In this document: positions 4,448 to 55,872 of the stretch, piece after piece
How the letters are laid out: each line of letters opens with the position of its first letter
Numbering within the stretch: the first letter of the stretch is position 1
Source of the DNA: Escherichia coli
Lineage (GTDB): Bacteria > Pseudomonadota > Gammaproteobacteria > Enterobacterales > Enterobacteriaceae
Assembly (NCBI RefSeq): GCF_965641715.1
Contig: NZ_OZ282453.1
DNA length: 64,000 nucleotides
Strand: one strand, 5' to 3'
Translations under genes and position numbers: made by a program
Notes under the pieces: generated by a model
Database searches by the model: none
Told to the model about the DNA's origin: nothing
The model's input: the letters and a program-made list of their open reading frames with translations, nothing else

Positions 4448-4897
4448 ATGGGTCTGTTCAATTTTGTGAAAGATGCCGGAGAAAAACTCTGGGACGCGGT
4501 TACAGGTCAGCACGATAAAGACGATCAGGCGAAGAAGGTGCAGGAGCATCTGAACAAAACCGGTATACCTGATGCCGATAAAGTGAACATTCAAATTGCC
4601 GACGGCAAAGCGACGGTCACTGGTGACGGCCTGAGTCAGGAGGCGAAGGAGAAAATCCTTGTTGCGGTGGGGAATATTTCCGGTATTGCCAGTGTTGATG
4701 ATCAGGTGAAAACGGCGACACCAGCCACTGCCAGCCAGTTTTATACCGTTAAGTCTGGCGATACTCTGAGTGCCATTTCCAAACAGGTCTACGGTAACGC
4801 CAATCTGTACAATAAAATCTTCGAAGCGAATAAACCGATGCTAAAAAGCCCGGATAAAATTTACCCGGGGCAAGTGTTGCGTATTCCTGAAGAGTAG
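4448..4897 (+). CDS. kbp: Kbp (YgaU) potassium-binding protein with BON and LysM domains
   Basis: ORF 4421-4897; likely start [20 protein letters not shown]...; C-terminal LysM-like [50 protein letters not shown]. Confidence 0.9.
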
Positions 4898-5560
4898 TTA
4901 ATTGCCAGCCATCGCCTGCTGGATAATGGGAATTGGCGTCAGTAAATGCTGGCGCATTAACTCACTGGCGCGCGCGGTATCTCGCGCCAGTACCGCCGCA
5001 GTCAGGGTCTGGTGCTGATCGTGTTTATCCTCCAGCATTTCCACCGAAAGCACCGTTCGCCGCAGCCAGATAAATCGATAACGCGCCGCCAGATCAAACA
5101 ACCGTTCACGCATTTGCAGCAAATAGTGAGAACCACAGCCCGCCACAATTGCAGTATGAAACGCCTGATGACGCAGATCCCACTCATCAAGCATTTTCTC
5201 GCTAGCGTCACAGGCCTCAAGCTTACTCAGCAGATGCGCTTTTGCGAGAACGTCTGCCTCCCACTCATCGTCACCGCGGGCAATCGCCAGACTCACTAAC
5301 ATCGCTTCCATATTGGCGCGGGCGTCGAAAATATCGAGCAGCTCCTGCTCTGACATAGACGCCACCCGATACCCTTTTTGATTCACCACCGTGACCAGCC
5401 GTTCCGCCACCAGTTGCGAAAGAGCTTCCCGTAACGGCCCAACGCCAAGTGCATAACGCGATGTCAGCAAATTCATTCGTAATTTTTCATCCGGTTGAAA
5501 ATTACCGCGAATAATATCGTTCTTCAGCCAGCGATAGCCATCCAGAGACGTAATGGTCAT
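4898..5560 (-). CDS. csiR: CsiR GntR-family repressor of the csiD-lhgO-gabDTP operon
   Basis: ORF 4898-5578; likely start MTITSLDGYRWLKNDIIRGNF...; GntR/FadR-type architecture; directly downstream of gabP. Confidence 0.9.
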   Translation of the reverse strand: MTITSLDGYRWLKNDIIRGNFQPDEKLRMNLLTSRYALGVGPLREALSQLVAERLVTVVNQKGYRVASMSEQELLDIFDARANMEAMLVSLAIARGDDEWEADVLAKAHLLSKLEACDASEKMLDEWDLRHQAFHTAIVAGCGSHYLLQMRERLFDLAARYRFIWLRRTVLSVEMLEDKHDQHQTLTAAVLARDTARASELMRQHLLTPIPIIQQAMAGN

Positions 5561-23538: not shown

Positions 23539-23901
23539 TGGTGGAGCTGGCGGGAGTTGAACCCGCGTCCGAAATTCCTACATCCTCGGTACTACATGCT
23601 TAGTCAGTCTTTACATTCGCTTGCCAGCTGCGGACGGACACGCCACTAACAAACTAGCCTGATTAAGTTTTAACGCTTCAACCCCAGGCAGGGCTTCCAC
23701 GCGATCTCTTTTGGGTTTGACCTCTCTTGATCCCCGTCCTAAGAGCGGAGGCTAGGGAGAGAGGGCTCTAAGCAGGTTATTAAGCTGCTAAAGCGTAGTT
23801 TTCGTCGTTTGCGACTATTTTTTGCGGCTTTTTACGAGGCCAACCGCCCCTCGGCATGCACCTTGGGTTTCGCAAATCCCGTCGAATCCAGAATCAGCCC
23901 C
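23539..23901 (-). ncRNA. ssrA: tmRNA (SsrA), 363 nt
   Basis: Reverse complement matches the recalled E. coli tmRNA from 5' GGGGCUGAUUCUGGAUUCGACGGG... through the tag-encoding region to the 3' ...GGUUCAACUCCCGCCAGCUCCACCA. Confidence 0.97.
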
Positions 23902-41951: not shown

Positions 41952-42974
41952 TTATGTGGATGAAATGTGGATGCCTCCTTTTAACGGATTAAGTGAAATT
42001 GCATCCTGGAGGAAATCAGGAGCGAGGTGCGCATAGGTCATAGTTTGCTGGATCGTGGCGTGCCCCATAATTCGCTGGAGCGTAAGTATATTTCCTCCAT
42101 TAATCATAAAGTGAGCTGCAAAGGTATGGCGTAGAACATGTACTGCCTGCCCTTTTGGTAGATCAGGTTTAACACTGCGAAGCACCTTGCGATATTCCTC
42201 ATAATTGACGTCAAACAAAAGGCCGGATTTCTTTGTTTTGATCTCGCTAACAACTTCATCAGAGACAGGAATAATTCGAACTTTTCCGTTTTTAGTTTTG
42301 TTAAACGTCACGCGGTTATTGATGATGTGTTCCGCGCGCAGATTTTTCGCTTCTCCCCATCTCGCACCAGTACTGAGACAAAGTAGCGTAATCCGCCGGG
42401 CATCACCGCTTACTGCATCCAGTAATTTGGCAATTTCTTCCGTGGTGAGATACGTCATTTCGGGTGATTTTCGTTTCAAAGAGGGGAGGGCGCGGAGCGG
42501 ATTTTCTCCGTGAAATTCCCCGGCATTTGCCAGGAGTGTAAACATTCCTCCGAGATCCGACTCATCACGCCGAACAGTAGACTCTTTTACTCCCAAAGAT
42601 AAACGGGAGCTTCGATAAGCGGCCATGAAACGAGCATTAATCTGGCTAACCCTTGGATCATTCATTTCTTTGATGATTTTTTTCAACCTGGTTAGAACGC
42701 CGTTAGCATATGGCTTATTGCGTCCACCCAATTCCCACCATAACGGAAGCAGATCTGAGAGATGACGTTGCTCTGTTGGCTTTTCAAGCCATTCCTTATC
42801 GTGCATGTGGCTGAGAACATAACGCTCAAAGGCCACTGCATCTGCCTTTTTCTTAAAAATCCGCTGAATCCGACGTCCACTTCGGCCACGCGGTCTAACA
42901 TCCACTTTATACCGTCCACCATCGAGTGCTTTAATTGCCATTGGCAAGCCCTCCGGTGAAACGAGGAAAGACAT
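41952..42974 (-). CDS. int: P2-type tyrosine integrase
   Basis: 340 aa ORF; ...RLKAEHIINNRVTFNKTKNGKVRIIPVSDEV...HVLRHTFAAHFMINGGNILTLQRIMGHATIQQTMTYAHLAPDFLQDAISLNPL closely resembles P2 Int as recalled (catalytic R...HxxR...Y). Confidence 0.93.
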   Translation of the reverse strand: MSFLVSPEGLPMAIKALDGGRYKVDVRPRGRSGRRIQRIFKKKADAVAFERYVLSHMHDKEWLEKPTEQRHLSDLLPLWWELGGRNKPYANGVLTRLKKIIKEMNDPRVSQINARFMAAYRSSRLSLGVKESTVRRDESDLGGMFTLLANAGEFHGENPLRALPSLKRKSPEMTYLTTEEIAKLLDAVSGDARRITLLCLSTGARWGEAKNLRAEHIINNRVTFNKTKNGKVRIIPVSDEVVSEIKTKKSGLLFDVNYEEYRKVLRSVKPDLPKGQAVHVLRHTFAAHFMINGGNILTLQRIMGHATIQQTMTYAHLAPDFLQDAISLNPLKGGIHISST

Positions 42975-47046: not shown

Positions 47047-49869
47047 ATGACGGCAGAGTACATCAGGGACTGGCAACAACCGCGCCACGCAGTGGGACGT
47101 GAAGGAACGGGGATCCCCGTTCCTGAATCCGCGCTTTCCTCCTGGCTGGATGCCTACCGGGCAGAGAACGAGCGCCGCCAGGAAATGGCTGATGCGGCGT
47201 TCTCCGCCACGCCGCTGGGCAACCTGATTAATAAAAGCCTGGATGCACAGGAAAAACAGGACAAAACCATCACACTGGCAGGAGACGCCAGAAAACAGGT
47301 ACGCGGTGCGGTGGATGAAGCCATGGCCTCGCTGCGCCTGCTGCCGTCCTATCTGCGCGATCCGCTTATTCGCCACCTCTCCTTCCTGCGCAAAAAACAG
47401 GAAGCCGATCGCCGGAAAGGCAAAAAGAGCTGGCAGGCTGAACGCTACGCGCGCGGAACCCTGCGCAAAATATTCGAACGTCTGGACCGCACCGACCACC
47501 GCTGGCTGACACCGGGTTATCGCTCCCTTGCCGGACGCGAACGCCTGGATGATTTGCTTTACCTGCCGCAGCTCAACAAGCACCAGATACAGACGCTGGC
47601 CACCATGACGGCGGCGATGTTCAGCAGCACCTTCGAAAAACTCTGCGATGGCTTTGGCGCGACTGATGGCGAGCTGACCATGGATGTAACGCTGAAGGCG
47701 TATCAGATGCTGGCCCGCATGGCGTTACACCTGCACGCCATGCCTCCGCATTATGATGCACTGACAACAGACAAAGACCGGAGGAACGAACCGGACACGG
47801 AGCTGCTGCCGGGCGCAATCCTTCGCCTGACCTGTGCGGAATGGTGGAAACGCAAACTGTGGCTGTTACGTTGCGAGTGGCGGGAAGAACAACTCCGCGC
47901 CGCCTGTCTGGTTTCCAGAAAAACATCGCCCTATCTGAGCCAGGACGCGTTAAGCGAGTTTCGCGCACAGCGCGAGAAAACACGCGATTTCCTGAAAAGT
48001 TTCATGCTGGAAAACGAAGACGGGTTCACGATTGATCTCGAGACGGTGTATTACGCGGGAGTAAGTAACCCGGTTCATCGTAAGGCAGAAATGATGGCCA
48101 CCATGAAGGGGCTGGAACTTCTGGCCGAAGCCCGTGGCGACAAAGCGGTGTTTCTGACTGTCACCTGCCCGTCAAAATACCACGCCACAACAGAGAACGG
48201 TCATCCGAATCCCAAATGGAACGGGGCCACCATGCGCGACTCCAGCGATTACCTGGTTAACACGTTTTTTGCGGCGGTCCGCAAGAAACTGAACCGCGAC
48301 GGCCTGCGCTGGTATGGCATCCGCACGGTGGAGCCTCACCATGACGGCACCGTGCACTGGCATATGATGGTCTTTGCTCATCCGGAAGAAATCGACACCA
48401 TTGTGTCCCACACCCGCGATATTGCCATTCAGGAAGATCGTCACGAGCTGGGTGATGATATTACCCCACGCTTTAAGGCGGAGTACGTCGACGGCTCAAA
48501 AGGCACACCGACCAGCTACATCGCCACCTACATCGGGAAAAACCTGGACAGCCGTGCCGTGGATGGCATCGACCCGAAAACGGGCAAGCCACGCGTTGAC
48601 CACGAAACCGGAAAATCAATGGCCGAGAGCGTGGAACGCGCCATCGGCTGGGCGCGCCTTCATCGGGTCCGCCAGTTCCAGTTCTTTGGCATCCCCTCCC
48701 GTCAGGTGTGGCGTGAACTGCGCCGCCTTGCCAGCCAGATGGCTCGCAACCCGGAAGGACCGCAACGGCTGAAGGATGACGCAATGGACGCGGTTCTTGC
48801 TGCCGCTGATGCCGGATGTTTTGCCACCTACATAGAGAAACAGGGCGGCGTACTTGTTCCACGCAAGGACTACCTGATTCGCACCGCCTACGACCTCGCA
48901 GATGAGCTGAACGATTACGGTGAACAGAGCGTACAGATTTACGGGATCTGGTCACCGCTCATCGGGGAGTCTTCCCGCGTATGCACGCATCCGGACAACT
49001 GGAAGCTGGTAAGACGCAAACCGGAAGCGGAAGACAGCGCCCGCGAAAATGGTTTTGACCTTCAGGGCGGCCCTGCCGCCCCTTGGACTCGTGGCAATAA
49101 CTGTCCCCGTGTACAGGAAACAGGCAACAGCGGGACAGAACAGTCGAAAGAACGGCCAGCACCGTGGCCGCAGCTTCCTGACGGCGTTGACGTGAACGAA
49201 TGGATGCGCTCACTGAAACGGCACGAACGCCGGGCGCTGATGCGTTCGCTTCGTGACAAACAGGCAAAAAACAGCAGTGATGAAATGCAGAGCTGGACAC
49301 AGAGCCGCAAACAGCCACGGCCTTTGCCTGATAACCACGAATTACTCGCTAAAGAATGGCGGGAGTCTGCTGAATCTCTCGGCCTGCATATCGGTGAACA
49401 ACAGATGCAGCACCTGTTACGGGGCGGCAGTCTGTACGTTGACGGCAGCATCATTGCACCGCAGGGATTTGAAATTGTACGCAAACCGGATACCCGCCCG
49501 GACAGCCGAATCACGCAGCTCTGGCAGCGCCTGAGCCGTAATCATGGCGTAAGCAGCACGGAGATCCGCCATAACCCGGTCGCCAGCTATCTGGCACAGC
49601 TGGGGGCATCAGACCCTGAAGCCGCCGCACGCCTGGCATCCACACTTCAGCAGGACCAGAACACCATGAAAACACCCGTTACCGTGCTTTCTGACATGCT
49701 GCGCGCCATCCGCGACGCAGAGCACGCACAGAGAATCAGTGAAACCACTGAACGCGCCAGCCGCAAAGCAGACCTGCTGCGGGGTGGCCTGACCAGTGGA
49801 AACAAAAAACAGACAGAAACGGGATTCACAAATCCCATAAATGAGCAAAAAACGTGCCGCGATATATGA
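47047..49869 (+). CDS. P2 gpA-like rolling-circle replication initiator endonuclease (940 aa)
   Basis: HUH-type motif region ...GIRTVEPHHDGTVHWHMMVFAHPEE...; position after the early ORFs matches P2 gene A; unusually long C-terminal region. Confidence 0.85.
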   Translation: MTAEYIRDWQQPRHAVGREGTGIPVPESALSSWLDAYRAENERRQEMADAAFSATPLGNLINKSLDAQEKQDKTITLAGDARKQVRGAVDEAMASLRLLPSYLRDPLIRHLSFLRKKQEADRRKGKKSWQAERYARGTLRKIFERLDRTDHRWLTPGYRSLAGRERLDDLLYLPQLNKHQIQTLATMTAAMFSSTFEKLCDGFGATDGELTMDVTLKAYQMLARMALHLHAMPPHYDALTTDKDRRNEPDTELLPGAILRLTCAEWWKRKLWLLRCEWREEQLRAACLVSRKTSPYLSQDALSEFRAQREKTRDFLKSFMLENEDGFTIDLETVYYAGVSNPVHRKAEMMATMKGLELLAEARGDKAVFLTVTCPSKYHATTENGHPNPKWNGATMRDSSDYLVNTFFAAVRKKLNRDGLRWYGIRTVEPHHDGTVHWHMMVFAHPEEIDTIVSHTRDIAIQEDRHELGDDITPRFKAEYVDGSKGTPTSYIATYIGKNLDSRAVDGIDPKTGKPRVDHETGKSMAESVERAIGWARLHRVRQFQFFGIPSRQVWRELRRLASQMARNPEGPQRLKDDAMDAVLAAADAGCFATYIEKQGGVLVPRKDYLIRTAYDLADELNDYGEQSVQIYGIWSPLIGESSRVCTHPDNWKLVRRKPEAEDSARENGFDLQGGPAAPWTRGNNCPRVQETGNSGTEQSKERPAPWPQLPDGVDVNEWMRSLKRHERRALMRSLRDKQAKNSSDEMQSWTQSRKQPRPLPDNHELLAKEWRESAESLGLHIGEQQMQHLLRGGSLYVDGSIIAPQGFEIVRKPDTRPDSRITQLWQRLSRNHGVSSTEIRHNPVASYLAQLGASDPEAAARLASTLQQDQNTMKTPVTVLSDMLRAIRDAEHAQRISETTERASRKADLLRGGLTSGNKKQTETGFTNPINEQKTCRDI

Positions 49870-49945: not shown

Positions 49946-50905
49946 ATGAAAATTTGTATCGACGACGGCTCCACCAACATCAAGCTGGCATGGACTGAGA
50001 ACGGCGAACGCCGCAACGCCATCAGCCCGAACAGCTTCAAGTCGGAATGGTCTGCGCCGTTCGGTGGCTCGCAGCCCGCGAACTACATGCTTGATGGCGT
50101 GCGCTATGGTTTTGATCCGGTCAGCGATCGCTTTGTCCAGACGACCGACACGCAATACCAGTACAGCGATGTGAATGTCATTGCCATTCATCACGCGCTG
50201 GTCAAATCAGGCATCACGCCACAGGAGGTGGATGTGGTTGTCACCCTGCCATTGAGCGAGTATTTCGACACAAACGCACAGCCGGACATGGCCAACATCA
50301 GCCGCAAAAAAGCGAACGTTATGCGCCCGGTGGAGTACCAGAACGGCGAAACATTCACTATCCGTAACGTACGGGTTATGCCTGAATCCATTCCGGCTGG
50401 CTTTAAAGCACTGGCTGACATGAGTCCGCTTGAATCCCTGCTGATTGTGGATTTGGGCGGAACCACACTGGATGTGGCAAAGGTTCAGGGGCAACTGGCA
50501 GGTATCAGCCAGGTGTTTTGCGATCCACACGTAGGCGTTTCCCTGATGGCCGATGCCGTACTGTCGGTGATGGCCACTAACGGTATGCGTATCAGTCACC
50601 ACATCGCCAATACCATTATCGAACATCGCCATGATGAAGCCTGGTTGCGCCAGCACATCCACAATGACGCGCATTACGCCAGCCTGATGGCGGTTATTCG
50701 TGAAAAGGAAGAAACACTGAAACAACGCGTGATCCGCGCGCTGGCGGTTTTTTCGGGTTACGGGCGGGTGATGGTTGTCGGTGGCGGGGCGGAGATTGTG
50801 GCACCCGCTATCCGCGAAGCCTGCGGAGTTAATGCGACTTTCATCGCGGACGGGGTGCCACAGTTTGCTCTGGTTAATGGGCTGTACGCAATGGACAAGG
50901 AGTAA
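49946..50905 (+). CDS. ParM/StbA-like actin-fold ATPase (319 aa)
   Basis: N-terminus MKICIDDGSTNIKLAWTE...ISPNSFKSEW...YQYSDVNVIAIHHALVKSGI...LIVDLGGTTLDVA... matches the recalled plasmid R1 ParM phosphate-1/connect/phosphate-2 motifs; strong RBS. Confidence 0.8.
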   Translation: MKICIDDGSTNIKLAWTENGERRNAISPNSFKSEWSAPFGGSQPANYMLDGVRYGFDPVSDRFVQTTDTQYQYSDVNVIAIHHALVKSGITPQEVDVVVTLPLSEYFDTNAQPDMANISRKKANVMRPVEYQNGETFTIRNVRVMPESIPAGFKALADMSPLESLLIVDLGGTTLDVAKVQGQLAGISQVFCDPHVGVSLMADAVLSVMATNGMRISHHIANTIIEHRHDEAWLRQHIHNDAHYASLMAVIREKEETLKQRVIRALAVFSGYGRVMVVGGGAEIVAPAIREACGVNATFIADGVPQFALVNGLYAMDKE

Positions 50906-50909
50906 ACCA

Positions 50910-51221
50910 ATGACGACTCCAACCAGACGGATAAGTTTCTATCTGAAGCCCGCCGCCGTCAAGAACGAAGGTGAAGCATGCGCCTGGCTGGACAGCCTTA
51001 CACCAGAAGCGCGCAAAAGCGGCCAACGCGTGGCTTTTCTGGCCGGGCTGGCACTTCTGAAAATGAATCCGGCAGAGGCTTACCGACTGGCTGCATGGGC
51101 TGATGATGAAGCGTTATCAGTGACACAAACCAGGACAGAACGCCCCGCGTCACAGCCAGTATCAACCGCACAGATAACCAGTCAGATGGCCGGAAATATC
51201 CGGGCGTTATTTCCCGAATAA
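50910..51221 (+). CDS. ParR-like small DNA-binding protein (103 aa), partner of the ParM-like ATPase
   Basis: ORF 50775-51221 with probable start MTTPTRRISFYLKPAAV...; RRISFYLKP...RVAFLAGLALLKMNP...NIRALFPE parallels recalled R1 ParR (RRTIAFKLNP...RAALTAGLALYRQDP...ILRSLFPKE); 4-nt gap after parM-like gene. Confidence 0.7.
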   Translation: MTTPTRRISFYLKPAAVKNEGEACAWLDSLTPEARKSGQRVAFLAGLALLKMNPAEAYRLAAWADDEALSVTQTRTERPASQPVSTAQITSQMAGNIRALFPE

Positions 51222-51284
51222 CACAACATCAGGGCGCATCCGCCCTGATGACTTTAACCCGGGAACATAAACAAGGGGGACACA

Positions 51285-51620
51285 ATGCAACGCATTGACA
51301 GAGAAAAAGCGCAGCGACTGATTGAGCGGATGGAAGCGCTGGCGAAAGAAGAAAATGTCAACATCCAAAAAATAGCTGAATGTGGCCAGATAGTTCTTCG
51401 TCGTGAAAAAGACCTCAAACAACTGATGTCTGGCGAAACCAGCAAAACATGGACTTCAGGTGAGGAGACGATTTATTGCAGCTTCTGCAATAAATCCCAG
51501 TACGAAGTCACAAAGGTGATTGCCGGACCGTCTGTTTACATCTGCAATGAGTGCGTTGATTTGTGCAATGAAGTTATCAGGAGAGAAGTGACAGACCATG
51601 AAGAAAAAACGCATGAATGA
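51285..51620 (+). CDS. Small protein with C-terminal ClpX-type C4 zinc-binding domain (111 aa)
   Basis: [40 protein letters not shown] is near-identical in pattern to the ClpX N-terminal ZBD ([39 protein letters not shown] as recalled); N-terminal 60 aa predicted helical; own AAGGGGGA RBS. Confidence 0.8.
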
Positions 51621-51786
51621 CGAATTTGACGGCTTTTAATTTTATCGGGGCGCACTGTCGCCCTGCATGGAGAAAAACAATAAAAAAGATGAATAACTGC
51701 TCATGTCAGACGCGCTGCGGGCAAGTCTGGCACCCTGCCCTGTCTCCGCAAAGGCTGTTGTCTTAACACGACAGAGTATGCCAGCA

Positions 51787-52194
51787 TTAAATATAATCTT
51801 CTTCGTAGTCGCTGATTAATTCATTGCCATAATCAGACAGCAATTTCAAAGCAAAGGTAACTTCCTCAAGGGTAGCTATCCCCATTGCTGAAAACACCGT
51901 TAATTTAACCAGCAGCAGGGAGTTTGAAAGTTCGGAAGAGTTCATCATTAAAAATATTGATGCAGCCTGAAAAGCTGTGCGTTTATTCCCATCATGAAAG
52001 GCATGAGCCTTGGCTATACCAATCAAATACATAGCAGCCAGAGCATGAATATCATCAACCCCTTCATAGTAGTGTAGTGTCCTGACGCGATTTAAAGCAC
52101 CTTCAAGTAGCCCGTCATTGGCATTTCCGCTCTGGGGTAAAGTTTCAGCATGGATACGTTCTACTTGTTCTTTTGACAAAAACACTATGTCCAT
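51787..52194 (-). CDS. Doc-like (Fic/Doc family) toxin
   Basis: 135 aa ORF with Doc-type Fic motif HAFHDGNKRTA (HxFx[D/N]GNKR); start overlaps stop of upstream antitoxin-like gene. Confidence 0.8.
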   Translation of the reverse strand: MDIVFLSKEQVERIHAETLPQSGNANDGLLEGALNRVRTLHYYEGVDDIHALAAMYLIGIAKAHAFHDGNKRTAFQAASIFLMMNSSELSNSLLLVKLTVFSAMGIATLEEVTFALKLLSDYGNELISDYEEDYI

Positions 52195-52550
52195 CAGTTA
52201 TCCTCAAGCTTTTTAATGATATCCGCATGTTTTTCTCTTGTACGCTTCATTGCATCTTCAAAAGACAATCCTTTTTTTCTCTGTGCGACAAGAGCTGGAT
52301 GACGTTTTTCCAGATCTCTCACTGCATTTATTAAGAGTGGTTGCTTCATTTTGTTTATTTGATCCCGCAGTTTTTTGGTTTTGCCAAGGACAGCCCGTAT
52401 TTCAGGACTAAGATCAGAACCAGCAAGAACAACATCCTTCCCTCCCTGCGCCGTGATAACGACACTGCCACCGGAAGAAAGGTAATCCAGAATTTCACTC
52501 AGGTTCTCACGAAATTCATCATCAGTTACAGTTTTCATATTCATTTCCAT
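52194..52550 (-). CDS. Phd/YefM-like antitoxin with extended C-terminal region (118 aa; start ambiguous among three ATGs)
   Basis: N-terminal MKTVTDDEFRENLSEILDYLSSGGSVVITAQGGKDVVLAGSDL resembles the Phd/YefM fold; basic C-terminal 60 aa; overlaps doc-like gene (ATGA arrangement). Confidence 0.7.
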   Translation of the reverse strand: MEMNMKTVTDDEFRENLSEILDYLSSGGSVVITAQGGKDVVLAGSDLSPEIRAVLGKTKKLRDQINKMKQPLLINAVRDLEKRHPALVAQRKKGLSFEDAMKRTREKHADIIKKLEDN

Positions 52551-53074: not shown

Positions 53075-54121
53075 TCAGGATGTGGGCTGGGTGTCCAGCA
53101 GTGCGTAAGGGTTAAAGCGGATCACCTCTTCGCCAAGCCAGTCATTGATATGCTTCATGGCCTCCATGACGGGCATCAGCTCGTTAATTGCGTAAACCCG
53201 CGCTGCCTTCTCCACATCACCAAACGCACTTTTTTCGCCCGGCATCGCCCCCATCAGTTGCGGCGGAACGCGGTGCGCAGCCAGCACATCATCACGGGAT
53301 GCCGCCTTAACATTCATGAACTCATCCTTTGCGGTGATCTGCTGGAACGGCAAAATTTGCACACCTTCTTTGCCCCCGTTGGGCGCGTGAATGAGCACGT
53401 TTTTAAATGCACCACCACCACGCGCACCCTGTAGCGTTTCCTTCAGGGAGTCCATGCTTTCGCGGTTTACCTGCGCTGCACCGATGTAGATGATGCACCC
53501 GGCGTGGGATCCATTGTCGTAGTACAGTTTTCTGAACATGTCCGCCGAATGAGACAGGCTGGCCGAGAGTAATGCGCCAAGATATTCCGGCATGCCGTAA
53601 ATTTCCTGGTTAATGTCCGGATTCATCAGGTGGCACACTTTGCCAGGGCGAAACTGAAACGCGTCCTTGCCATCCTGCACATACCACCATGATTCAAGAT
53701 CGCTTCCGCGTCGCATGTATTTCGCCAGTGCGTGCCGTAATTTAAGTGGTTCGCCGAGCATATTGCTCCGAAGCTCAAGGAATGCGTTACCGAACACAAA
53801 CCAGTCCAGCGCCAGCGCCGAGAAATCCTGCCGGGAAAGCAGCGGGTGCGGGATGTAGCAACCGAGCAATACATTGCGCTTAAAGTAAAGCGCAGACTGA
53901 TGCCAGGACGTTTGCCGGGCGGCTCTTGCCAGACCGTACCAGTCCACCGGGGTTTCATACCACCGCCCGTTATCAGCACAGTACATATTGTCCAGCAGGT
54001 CATGCCCGGTCAGGCGGTAAGGACCATCAAATGTGAATGCACTGAGCGACGATTCTTTCCTGAGCGCATCAGCGAGATCAATGCGTGAACTCATGCGCAC
54101 TTTTTTATTTTTTCTGCTCAT
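53075..54121 (-). CDS. Portal protein (P2 gpQ-like)
   Basis: 348 aa ORF in the conserved position and orientation of P2 Q; start overlaps the stop of the terminase gene. Confidence 0.9.
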   Translation of the reverse strand: MSRKNKKVRMSSRIDLADALRKESSLSAFTFDGPYRLTGHDLLDNMYCADNGRWYETPVDWYGLARAARQTSWHQSALYFKRNVLLGCYIPHPLLSRQDFSALALDWFVFGNAFLELRSNMLGEPLKLRHALAKYMRRGSDLESWWYVQDGKDAFQFRPGKVCHLMNPDINQEIYGMPEYLGALLSASLSHSADMFRKLYYDNGSHAGCIIYIGAAQVNRESMDSLKETLQGARGGGAFKNVLIHAPNGGKEGVQILPFQQITAKDEFMNVKAASRDDVLAAHRVPPQLMGAMPGEKSAFGDVEKAARVYAINELMPVMEAMKHINDWLGEEVIRFNPYALLDTQPTS

Positions 54122-55872
54122 CAGAACTCCATAACCGTGAAACGCTCGTTTTCTCCTTCGCCGCCAATTGGTTCGTTAATGACAGCAAGCATGGTTGCCC
54201 ACGCAAGGTCGCCGTGGCTGATCCCCCTCGCGCGGTCCGTTTCGTAAGTGATAAAGCCGCCCGGTGTTTTCACCTTACGCACGGCGTTAAAGGCCGCGAC
54301 CAGCTCGCGTTCGGCGCGATCGTATTCCCACCGCCCGGCACGCATTATTTGCAGCATTTTCAGTACCAGCGACCGTTTTGATGACAGCGTGAAGGTGTAC
54401 GGAATAGCGGCAGGGAAAAACCGTTTCACTATCTGATAAACAGCCTCCCCGTTCCCGCCCGTCACATCAATGCCGATGTGTTCCACGTTGTAGCGACACG
54501 TGAACTCTTCAATGACTCTGGCCTGTTCTTCAAACTCCAGCCCCTGAACGCGTCGCGTCTCCACCGTTCGAAAACGGCCACCAGGAACAGCCGGAGGAAC
54601 CACCACGGACACCGCGCCACTGTCGCCGTTTCCACTGCTGCCGTTTGCGTCATACCCAATCCATACCGGACGATTCCCCATCGGGCGGGGAGCAAAAGGT
54701 TTCCAGTCTTTCCAGTCGTCGTATCCGTCAACACCGCAGCCAATCAGGATATTCAGGTTAAATGCCGATTCCCCTTCGCGGACAAACTCACACATATAGA
54801 GATTGCGGAACTCGTCTTCGGTGTTTTCATCACGAATTTCATCAATATCGGTGTGTTTCCAGCCGTGATTAACCACATCTTCCAGCGTGACAATTTGCCG
54901 CCACGTCCGGTCGGGGCAGATAAGCCCGTTATGCAGCGTTTTCCAGTCCACAGAAAAACGCTGGCGTTTATGCGCGGCCTTTTTCTCGTTCCAGCGGTCG
55001 CCGTTCCAGTAGACGTATGCCTCGTGCGTTTCGGTTGATGGCGTGGAGAAGTAGGTGCGTCGCAGCCCGCTGAGGGTTGCCATAGCGCCAGCCACCTTGC
55101 GCAGTTCAGCAAAGCGACTGACCCAGAAAAATTCATCAAAATAAAAATTGCCTGTGTAGGACTGTGCCGTCGCAGCAGAAGTGCCGAGAAAATGCAGCTC
55201 TGCGCCGTTGGAGAGGATGATTTTATCGCCCCCTTTCAGCTCCACATCAACTTCAGATGCAGCCTTCTGAATAATGCTTTTAAACTGGAACGCCTGACGA
55301 CGCGACGCAGACAAAAAAATCTGGTTACGCTGGTAAGGTTGCGCCACATCGTCACGCAGCGCCATCAGCAGTGCTTCCTGTGCAAAATACCAGGTCGCCC
55401 CAATCTGTCGGGATTTCAGGATCATCCTGTTACGTATCCCGGCTTCCCTGCAAAGGGTCAGGGAGTCAAACCAGCCCCGCTGATGCCACTCCAGCCTGCT
55501 GATGATTTTTTCCCGCAGTGCGGCAATCTGTTCCGGCGTGAAATGATTTTTAAGCTTTTTCGCCCGGCCTTTCTTTCCTGTGGCCGTCGCATCCGGCTGG
55601 CCATCATGCAGTTTTTTAAGCTGCCGGGTCAGCAGGTCTATTTCCTTAAAGTCACCGCCTGTTTTATTCTGTTTTTCAGTAAGCTGGATGAGGCGCGCAT
55701 CGATGGACTGCGTGACACGCTGCACGGGTGGCGTTTCATCCCACTGGTCGCGTTTTTTCCACGCATAAATCGTGTTCGGGTTTATTCCCATCAGACGTGA
55801 TATTTCAGCGGGCGGATAACCCTGCCAGTAAAGTTGTCGCGCACGCTGGCGCACAAAAGCGTCCTGAATCAT
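54121..55872 (-). CDS. Terminase large subunit, ATPase (P2 gpP-like)
   Basis: 583 aa ORF MIQDAFVRQRARQLYWQGYPPAEISRLMGINPNTIYAWKKRDQWDE... with N-terminal HTH and ATPase/nuclease regions. Confidence 0.92.
   Translation of the reverse strand: MIQDAFVRQRARQLYWQGYPPAEISRLMGINPNTIYAWKKRDQWDETPPVQRVTQSIDARLIQLTEKQNKTGGDFKEIDLLTRQLKKLHDGQPDATATGKKGRAKKLKNHFTPEQIAALREKIISRLEWHQRGWFDSLTLCREAGIRNRMILKSRQIGATWYFAQEALLMALRDDVAQPYQRNQIFLSASRRQAFQFKSIIQKAASEVDVELKGGDKIILSNGAELHFLGTSAATAQSYTGNFYFDEFFWVSRFAELRKVAGAMATLSGLRRTYFSTPSTETHEAYVYWNGDRWNEKKAAHKRQRFSVDWKTLHNGLICPDRTWRQIVTLEDVVNHGWKHTDIDEIRDENTEDEFRNLYMCEFVREGESAFNLNILIGCGVDGYDDWKDWKPFAPRPMGNRPVWIGYDANGSSGNGDSGAVSVVVPPAVPGGRFRTVETRRVQGLEFEEQARVIEEFTCRYNVEHIGIDVTGGNGEAVYQIVKRFFPAAIPYTFTLSSKRSLVLKMLQIMRAGRWEYDRAERELVAAFNAVRKVKTPGGFITYETDRARGISHGDLAWATMLAVINEPIGGEGENERFTVMEF

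Follow-up and report, generated by a model that had tools for sequence, protein, structure and literature searches.

The zinc-binding domain (ZBD) at the N-terminus of ClpX is the docking hub for adaptors and many substrates. It is required for FtsZ, MuA and the adaptors (PMC5415555), and lambda O and adaptor-mediated delivery need it where ssrA tags do not (PMC5415555, PMC7804408). An overlapping hydrophobic pocket, formed around F16 and I46, is common to lambda O, SspB, RssB and trigger factor (PMC7804408). The isolated Escherichia coli ZBD dimerises, and in trans it inhibits RssB-mediated breakdown of sigma-S by ClpXP (PMC7226468). From the side of the phage, RexB of prophage lambda protects lambda O, Phd and MazE from proteolysis by ClpX/ClpA (PMC11077077). 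Here we analyse a 64,000-nucleotide stretch of E. coli DNA (contig NZ_OZ282453.1 of assembly GCF_965641715.1, hereafter the window), in which a prophage gene at 51285..51620 encodes a ClpX-type ZBD without the remainder of ClpX. We show that this ZBD is intact, under strong purifying selection and flexibly linked to a family-specific two-helix domain, and we tentatively propose that the protein mimics the ClpX N-domain.

The phage protein shares with E. coli ClpX the fold (as predicted), the C-x2-C-x18-C-x2-C ligands and the pocket residues F16 and I46 (the latter being V97 in the window), yet it is phage-encoded and has neither the AAA+ module, nor the IGF loop, nor the pore. Its ZBD is placed C-terminally, after a unique helical hairpin, and its codons have fully diverged from those of host clpX. 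The nearest functional precedent for the proposed activity is RexB, likewise an accessory protein of a temperate phage, which stabilises ClpX substrates including the Phd antitoxin (PMC11077077). RexB, however, is a membrane protein without a ZBD and unrelated in sequence, and for the ZBD protein the activity is one that we infer. The RssB anti-adaptors IraD, IraM and IraP are small proteins that block substrate delivery to ClpXP by binding the adaptor, and a common docking site on RssB has been proposed for the ZBD and IraD (PMC7226468). These anti-adaptors have unrelated folds, are host-encoded and stress-induced, and have RssB as their only target; for a ZBD mimic, any N-domain ligand could be one. 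SspB-type adaptors are, like the phage protein, two-part molecules with a flexible tether that act at the ClpX N-domain interface, but they bear a ZBD-binding XB peptide where the phage protein bears the ZBD itself, making it the mirror image of an adaptor. Reading the alignment by eye, in place of a formal motif search, which was not run, revealed no conserved XB-like motif in the phage protein, and its C-terminal tail is not conserved. Finally, the bare phage ZBDs of PHROG 12435 and 5259 resemble the window protein in being phage-encoded ZBDs without an ATPase. They differ in that the hairpin is absent, the ZBD is 43-58% identical and the hosts are others, whereas the window family is confined to Escherichia and Salmonella. 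Such bare ZBD proteins are known from Pseudomonas, Caulobacter, Klebsiella and Bacillus phages, an example being the 65-residue 'Clp protease' of the Pseudomonas phage PP9W2.

The product of the window gene is identical in sequence to RefSeq WP_001561007, 'ClpX C4-type zinc finger protein'. The gene and its parts are given below, with helix and linker limits taken from an AlphaFold2 (AF2) monomer model and its predicted local distance difference test (pLDDT) values.

51273..51279, plus strand: Shine-Dalgarno-like AAGGGGG, 5 nucleotides (nt) 5' of the ATG, read off the sequence
51285..51620, plus strand: gene for the stand-alone N-terminal domain and ClpX-type ZBD, a complete open reading frame (ORF) with ATG start and TGA stop, 111 residues
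51300..51428, plus strand: N-terminal helical hairpin, residues 6-48, pLDDT 75-89 in the AF2 monomer
51429..51470, plus strand: flexible linker, residues 49-62, with low pLDDT and indel-rich alignment columns
51471..51584, plus strand: ClpX-type ZBD, residues 63-100, from Pfam PF06689, Foldseek and identity to E. coli ClpX
51477-51479, 51486-51488, 51543-51545 and 51552-51554, plus strand: ZBD cysteine codons C65, C68, C87 and C90, respectively
51585..51617, plus strand: 11-residue charged (acidic/basic) C-terminal tail, from the alignment with relatives

Pfam zf-C4_ClpX (PF06689) matches residues 64-99 over model positions 2-38 of 39 (i-Evalue 3.1e-17, 62.6 bits), and the C-x2-C-x18-C-x2-C spacing is given by C65, C68, C87 and C90, which are invariant in 13 of 13 family sequences. 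Nearly the whole ClpX consensus is retained. The stretches IAGPSVYIC and ECVDLCN are identical between the window ZBD and E. coli ClpX, as are 30 of the 38 residues of the core (YCSFC...IRxE; 79%). The pocket residue F16 is kept as F67, and I46 corresponds to V97 in the window and to I in most relatives. A preliminary description of this DNA had recognised a stand-alone ClpX-type ZBD protein here, and the intact ORF, the Pfam match and the cysteine spacing all bear this out. It had equated the ZBD with the C-terminal 40 residues; the motifs are indeed identical to those of ClpX, but the domain spans residues 63-100 or thereabouts and is followed by the 11-residue tail. By the clpX models TIGR00382 and NF003745 the protein is not a ClpX unfoldase, reaching 49.3 bits against a cutoff of 370.75 over model positions 6-53 only.

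The AF2 monomer (mean pLDDT 77) consists of helices at residues 6-22 and 27-48, a disordered linker at 52-59 (pLDDT below 50) and a zinc-ribbon plus helix, in agreement with the helical N-terminal region that had been described earlier. The predicted ZBD superposes on the solved ClpX ZBDs 2DS5, 2DS6, 2DS7 and 2DS8 with a root-mean-square deviation (rmsd) of 0.7-1.0 Å over 38-42 residues. Foldseek matches to 2DS5, 2DS6, 2DS8 and 1OVX gave rmsd values of 0.7-1.5 Å at 72-78% identity. The fold of the solved domain is one that we take to be of the treble-clef type.

At the DNA level, the ZBD segment is 63% identical to clpX of E. coli MG1655, and 41% identical at third codon positions. Against divergent relatives, the ratio of nonsynonymous to synonymous substitution (dN/dS) in the ZBD is 0.07-0.25 with synonymous sites near saturation, and the N-terminal domain shows proportions of nonsynonymous (pN) and synonymous (pS) differences of 0.38-0.49 and about 0.8-0.86. 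Judging from these sequence comparisons, both halves are under purifying selection, the ZBD very strongly. That the ZBD has stayed 79% identical to that of the host despite saturated synonymous sites argues that ClpX-specific surfaces, beyond the fold, have been selected. A recent pseudogene fragment of host clpX is ruled out by the third-position identity, the low dN/dS and the intact ORF in hundreds of genomes. Host clpX loci gave zero megablast or blastn matches with the window gene; in the blastn search, any match was found in 220 of 5426 complete E. coli genomes. As a separate observation, pS between the window and the compared locus L016 is 0.28 in the ZBD segment and 0.79 in the N-terminal domain of the same pair, a contrast suggesting that family members have exchanged the ZBD-coding segment, by recombination or gene conversion. 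The C-terminal tail of the window protein also differs in the alignment from the P88-type tail VTDKKGKNA, because a recombination breakpoint falls within it.

A profile built from the N-terminal 59 residues alone was run against 1.84 billion representative proteins and matched 19 proteins, of which every intact one consists of the hairpin, a variable linker and the ZBD within 106-129 residues. The remaining matches were truncated or frameshifted copies, and a few weak ones to short stretches of proteins of 600-1200 residues. The hairpin domain is thus specific to this family and, as far as these profile searches reach, occurs solely fused to the ZBD, in an obligate two-domain architecture. No relatives of the hairpin, by sequence or by fold, were found in PDB or BFVD. 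The linker connecting the two domains differs in both length and sequence across the family, giving rise to the indel-rich alignment columns.

Named family members come solely from Escherichia (coli, albertii and marmotae) and Salmonella enterica, where four groups of carriers can be distinguished. P88-like prophages with at least 80% of the gene are present in 111 of 5426 complete E. coli genomes (about 2%), and the gene is encoded by phages P88 and PhiR44_2. Other P2-like prophages of Salmonella and E. coli carry versions with ZBD identities down to 31-45%. Phage-plasmids of the P1-like D6 type and of an SSU5-like type account for 105 plasmid places in E. coli, and lambdoid prophages form the fourth group. 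The gene has already been catalogued, namely under its RefSeq name, as PHROG 6797 and in Table S5 of Rousset et al.; the PHROG 6797 profile gives a full-length match (E=1.6e-57), its positions 5-106 of 107 pairing with residues 1-105. The erroneous name 'carboxylate--amine ligase' is widespread in the family, for instance in P88 gp19 (L001:5382-5714), D6 orf93 (L020:3480-3800) and many GenBank entries, and newer RefSeq records name it 'ClpX C4-type zinc finger protein'.

The surroundings of the gene form the right arm of a P88-like prophage (Xuanwuvirus, Peduoviridae, P2-like) in its integrated state. In P2-like phages, the cos-proximal locus between gpA and portal (gpA-gpQ) is a hotspot of cargo and defence genes, and about a quarter of these phages have a partition system there (PMC9122126). 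The neighbours in the window are as follows.

41952-42974: prophage integrase
47047-49869: gpA replication endonuclease
49946-50905, plus strand: ParM-like partition gene
50910-51221, plus strand: ParR-like partition gene
51227..51250: 10-base-pair GC-rich hairpin between parR and the ZBD gene, with a terminator score only on the minus strand
51617..51765, plus strand: remnant, not a gene, made up of a module junction and the degraded 5' end of a 174-residue gene
51787-52194, minus strand: Doc, 53.6 bits with TIGR01550 against a cutoff of 38.65, HxFxDGNKR motif
52194-52550, minus strand: Phd-like antitoxin, 16.6 bits with TIGR01552, below the cutoff of 20.8; PHROG 375 E=4e-5
53075-54121, minus strand: portal, which closes the hotspot
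54121-55872, minus strand: terminase

The hairpin at 51227..51250 is conserved and marks the left edge of the cargo region. In the window no LexA box was found upstream of the ZBD gene, the sole LexA-like string being a weak one in the metagenomic locus L023. The window further contains a tmRNA gene (tag ANDENYALAA) at 23539-23901 (minus strand) and a tRNA-Met gene at 15668-15743 (plus strand), some 18 kilobases (kb) from the integrase. Neither is adjacent to the prophage end or has an evident tie to the ZBD gene.

What lies next to the ZBD gene varies strongly between carriers. Among 70 full-length loci of the family that were surveyed in IMG/VR, the 19 P88-like ones have a gp20-type gene downstream in an ATGA overlap, a neighbour that was also found in 72 of the ZBD-positive E. 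coli genomes. A subfamily of about 50% identity has a different overlapping downstream gene, p174, in 26 of its 27 loci, and an Ea22-like gene was detected upstream in 21 of the 27. Several divergent P2-like lineages have the ZBD gene by itself between gpA and ogr/portal. Among the downstream genes, the three common ones (P88 gp20, p174 of L008 and the 174-residue protein of L026) show no mutual similarity. An obligate module with the downstream gene can be rejected, since gp20, its variant in L005, p174 and the 174-residue gene are unrelated and several lineages have none. Membership of a ParMR operon is likewise rejected: ParMR occurs without the ZBD gene in many P88-like phages, and the ZBD gene without ParMR in Salmonella and other P2-like phages, D6, SSU5-like plasmids and lambdoids. 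The ZBD gene is therefore autonomous, in so far as locus comparison can tell, with neighbours that are mutually unrelated and sometimes missing altogether. As no partner gene is conserved, the most likely targets of the protein are factors of the host or generic ones of the phage.

Several features of these neighbourhoods deserve a record of their own. ParM and ParR constitute an actin-like partition system that is here found on a chromosomal P2-like prophage (window 49946-51221), and 1317 of 1318 related E. coli places are chromosomal; ParMR and the ZBD gene co-occur over ZBD identities from 35% to 100% (L088-L090, L093). In the D6, SSU5-like and lambdoid subfamily (L008, L009, L010, L020, L061-L087), p174, with its ATGA overlap, encodes a 173-residue protein (PHROG 6026/368), and the upstream gene is usually Ead/Ea22-like, several of these mosaic proteins sharing a C-terminal GIRIKGE. 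In the Salmonella P2-like locus L013, a 71-nt direct repeat (4891-4961 and 5390-5460; 97% identical) brackets the ZBD gene: CCGCTCGCCGCAAGCCCTGATTA..GGCGAGTCTGTCAGGGCGAGGAAGCGGAATTACT. The same sequence is found just downstream of the ZBD gene in L012, L021 and L024 and is absent from the window. It may be a cos-proximal sequence, which would suggest insertion of the cassette by recombination near cos. In another Salmonella P2-like locus (L021:3900-3960) there is, just upstream of the ZBD gene, a perfect inverted repeat (about 26 nt; CACTGTCTTACTTTGTCCGTACTTTT...AAAAGTACGGACAAAGTAAGACAGTG), which could be an operator or a terminator. Finally, the string TGAATGACGAATTTGACGGCTTTTAATTTTATCGGGG follows the parR stop codon in some prophages and the ZBD stop codon in others (compare L026:2834-2980 and L018:2494-2643), and from its placement looks like a shared module junction where cargo genes swap.

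The preliminary description had also noted a Phd/Doc-like module next to the ZBD gene, and had raised the idea that the protein tunes its toxin. The module is there, Doc scoring above the TIGR01550 cutoff and the Phd-like ORF, labelled Phd/YefM family antitoxin by RefSeq, giving a weak hidden Markov model match. The proposed functional link, on the other hand, finds no comparative support. The ZBD gene and the Phd/Doc unit are convergent, 166 nt apart and in separate operons. The arrangement is present in 17 of the 111 ZBD-positive E. coli genomes and absent from 94, and Phd/Doc is nearby in 5 of the 70 IMG/VR family loci and lacking in 65. Seeding the search of IMG/VR with Doc returned 15 loci of its subfamily, 10 of which have no ZBD gene within 4 kb. 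Among complete E. coli genomes the Phd/Doc block occurs in 19, always at least 99% identical to that of the window, and 17 of these also carry the ZBD gene; two lineages (L019, L108) keep Phd/Doc after a deletion running from parM to the ZBD gene. Neither the conserved co-occurrence nor the conserved co-orientation of a three-component Phd/Doc and ZBD system was found.

The history of the junction points the same way. A degraded copy of a junction and of the 5' end of the 174-residue gene takes up the roughly 150 nt that follow the ZBD stop codon; this gene comes after the ZBD gene in relatives such as L026 and after parR in L018. Since this homology ends where the Phd/Doc cassette begins, Phd/Doc came later and replaced, by truncation, an earlier cargo gene. 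A 49-residue ORF at 51617-51766 was considered as a coupled partner and rejected, being this degraded junction and 5' remnant with zero family match. In a Salmonella P2-like lineage (L092, L125, L126), an orthologous Phd/Doc lies directly upstream of a family ZBD gene in divergent orientation, with Doc 56% and the ZBD 35% identical to those of the window; there, the cassette replaces parM and leaves a parR remnant. Of the 8 distinct contexts in which the identical Salmonella ZBD protein is found, 2 have the cassette and 6 lack it. By locus comparison this is a second, independent adjacency of Phd/Doc, yet again one of a cassette that is either present or absent. The hotspot measures only 1-3 kb, so adjacency is largely forced, and the position of the ZBD gene beside Phd/Doc looks accidental, a matter of crowding among the cargo of the hotspot. 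As for the module itself, the Phd-like antitoxin is long, with 114-132 residues (window 51787-52550; L092:1825-2630), the Phd of P1 having about 73. The E. coli and Salmonella versions share its conserved C-terminus, GLSFE[DE]A.K...E[KR]HAD[IV]IK.LE[DN]N, and Doc has weak PADLOC matches to the candidate defence systems PDC-S23 and PDC-M59B.

So what might a ClpX docking domain without its unfoldase do? The earlier idea of a free ZBD as a decoy for ClpX partners is a reasonable one in the light of the published inhibition by isolated ZBD in trans (PMC7226468) and of the pocket retained here. With a probability of roughly 40%, we propose that the protein is a mimic of the ClpX N-domain which competes for ZBD ligands such as SspB, RssB, or substrates of the lambda O or MuA type. 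In the same tentative terms, temperate phages of Escherichia and Salmonella may carry dedicated N-domain mimics, and other phages may independently carry bare ZBDs, all of which would reprogram recognition by ClpXP. The phage ZBD would dimerise and bind zinc as ClpX's own domain does, and would offer the same hydrophobic pocket to the SspB tail, to RssB or to lambda-O- and MuA-type substrates. Captured away from the unfoldase, these ligands would be lost to it, leading to a selective damping of N-domain-dependent degradation or remodelling, with N-domain-independent (ssrA-type) degradation being spared. The hairpin probably adds oligomerisation, and hence avidity, or a second binding specificity, and the targets would be host or generic phage factors rather than a partner encoded next door. 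Candidate payoffs include the stabilisation of phage or host proteins, control of RpoS, antitoxin stability, and the blocking of ClpX-dependent phages such as Mu.

Several points must be weighed against competition for ZBD ligands. The published inhibition in trans was seen at 5-20 µM ZBD against 0.6 µM ClpXP, roughly a 10-30-fold excess (PMC7226468), and no sigma-70 promoter was found upstream of the window gene. Dimerisation of the phage protein is deduced solely by homology, and a tandem-homodimer AF2 run gave a mean pLDDT of 53, which is of low confidence. Some D6- and SSU5-like members vary at P31, S32, Y34 and L42, which are invariant in our ClpX sample; that sample came from a word-indexed search seeded with the window protein, and is thereby biased and of qualitative use only. 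In the library searched, we found no literature on any family member, on stand-alone phage ZBDs or on phage mimics of ClpX. Moreover, a pure decoy would not need the hairpin, and other phages have bare ZBDs of about 65 residues, unlike the obligate hairpin seen here. That the hairpin is never lost hints at bridging or redirecting, and its invariant presence speaks for something more than simple sequestration.

A bridging or redirecting factor would heterodimerise with the ClpX ZBD or bind an adaptor tail, and use its hairpin either to recruit a target to ClpXP, resulting in new targeted degradation, or to plug the unfoldase, resulting in blockage. The N-terminal domain is obligate and its flexible linker varies in length, as is typical of two-site adaptors, and a ZBD core nearly identical to that of host ClpX would permit heterodimers. 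There is also a meeting report of a T5 peptide, Gp00X, inducing RpoS proteolysis via ClpXP (PMC11806420). Still, we consider such a factor rather doubtful. The hairpin has no recognisable relative in the PDB search, and the loci compared show zero conserved co-encoded partners. Furthermore, ClpX ZBD dimers are constitutive, so that subunit exchange may be rare. A function independent of ClpX, in which the ZBD serves as a generic zinc-ribbon module for dimerisation or binding, for instance within a small protein that regulates how the phage develops, seems to us unlikely. PF06689 does occur in other architectures, such as an actinobacterial ZBD with what by eye appears to be a C-terminal helix-turn-helix (P0059), and the gene usually points the same way as the early/replication operon and has Ea22-like early accessory genes around it. 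Against this stand the host-like ZBD sequence kept in spite of synonymous saturation, and a Pfam scan in which no DNA-binding motif was detected in the ZBD protein.

The two remaining explanations concern the biological setting, and both appear improbable. In one, a variant of the mimic proposal with regard to role, the prophage decoy would exclude superinfecting phages that depend on the ClpX N-domain, such as transposable phages of the Mu type. The gpA-gpQ locus is rich in defence systems (PMC9122126) and recognition of MuA requires the N-domain (PMC5415555), but a PADLOC-DB 2.0 search at E<=0.01 matched the ZBD protein to 0 families, the table of systems tested by Rousset et al. contains no ClpX-domain gene (PMC9122126), and the gene is also found in early-gene arrays of lambdoids and phage-plasmids. 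In the other, which is the model of the preliminary description, the protein would be a third component of Phd/Doc that adjusts how ClpXP degrades the Phd-like antitoxin and, through this, the activation of Doc. It draws on P1 Phd being a ClpXP substrate whose degradation is inhibited in the manner of RexB (PMC11077077), and on the two independent adjacencies, downstream in E. coli and upstream in Salmonella. These have to be set against the majority of ZBD loci without Phd/Doc and of Doc-subfamily loci without the ZBD gene, a cassette that persists after deletion of the ZBD gene, the same Salmonella ZBD with and without it, and a convergent arrangement, formed by truncation of an older gene, in a hotspot small enough to make adjacency expected. 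As such, the toxin-antitoxin reading is without comparative-genomic support, and the reading at the level of the domain is plausible.

What is new here, as we interpret it, is that a domain already known appears in a new and conserved viral context, with a proposed role that had not been described before. The gene is under purifying selection, is carried by at least four types of temperate phage and is present in its P88-type form in about 2% of complete E. coli genomes, with about as many copies again on phage-plasmids. Its identification also corrects the propagated mis-annotation as a 'carboxylate--amine ligase'. ClpXP controls sigma-S, SOS and cell-division proteins, several antitoxins, the stability of lambda O and the replication of Mu, and a phage copy of its docking hub would be a simple, general means for viruses and prophages to edit the host degradome. 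Other phage modulators of host proteases are T7 Gp4.5 and T4 PinA. If confirmed, the domain mimicry of a protease receptor would join the short list of such modulators, RexB among them, and would provide a natural, selective inhibitor of N-domain-dependent ClpXP activity. If true, this would be viral manipulation of an AAA+ protease by copying its substrate and adaptor docking domain, by which RpoS levels, antitoxin stability or the stability of phage replication proteins may be altered, or ClpX-dependent phages excluded.

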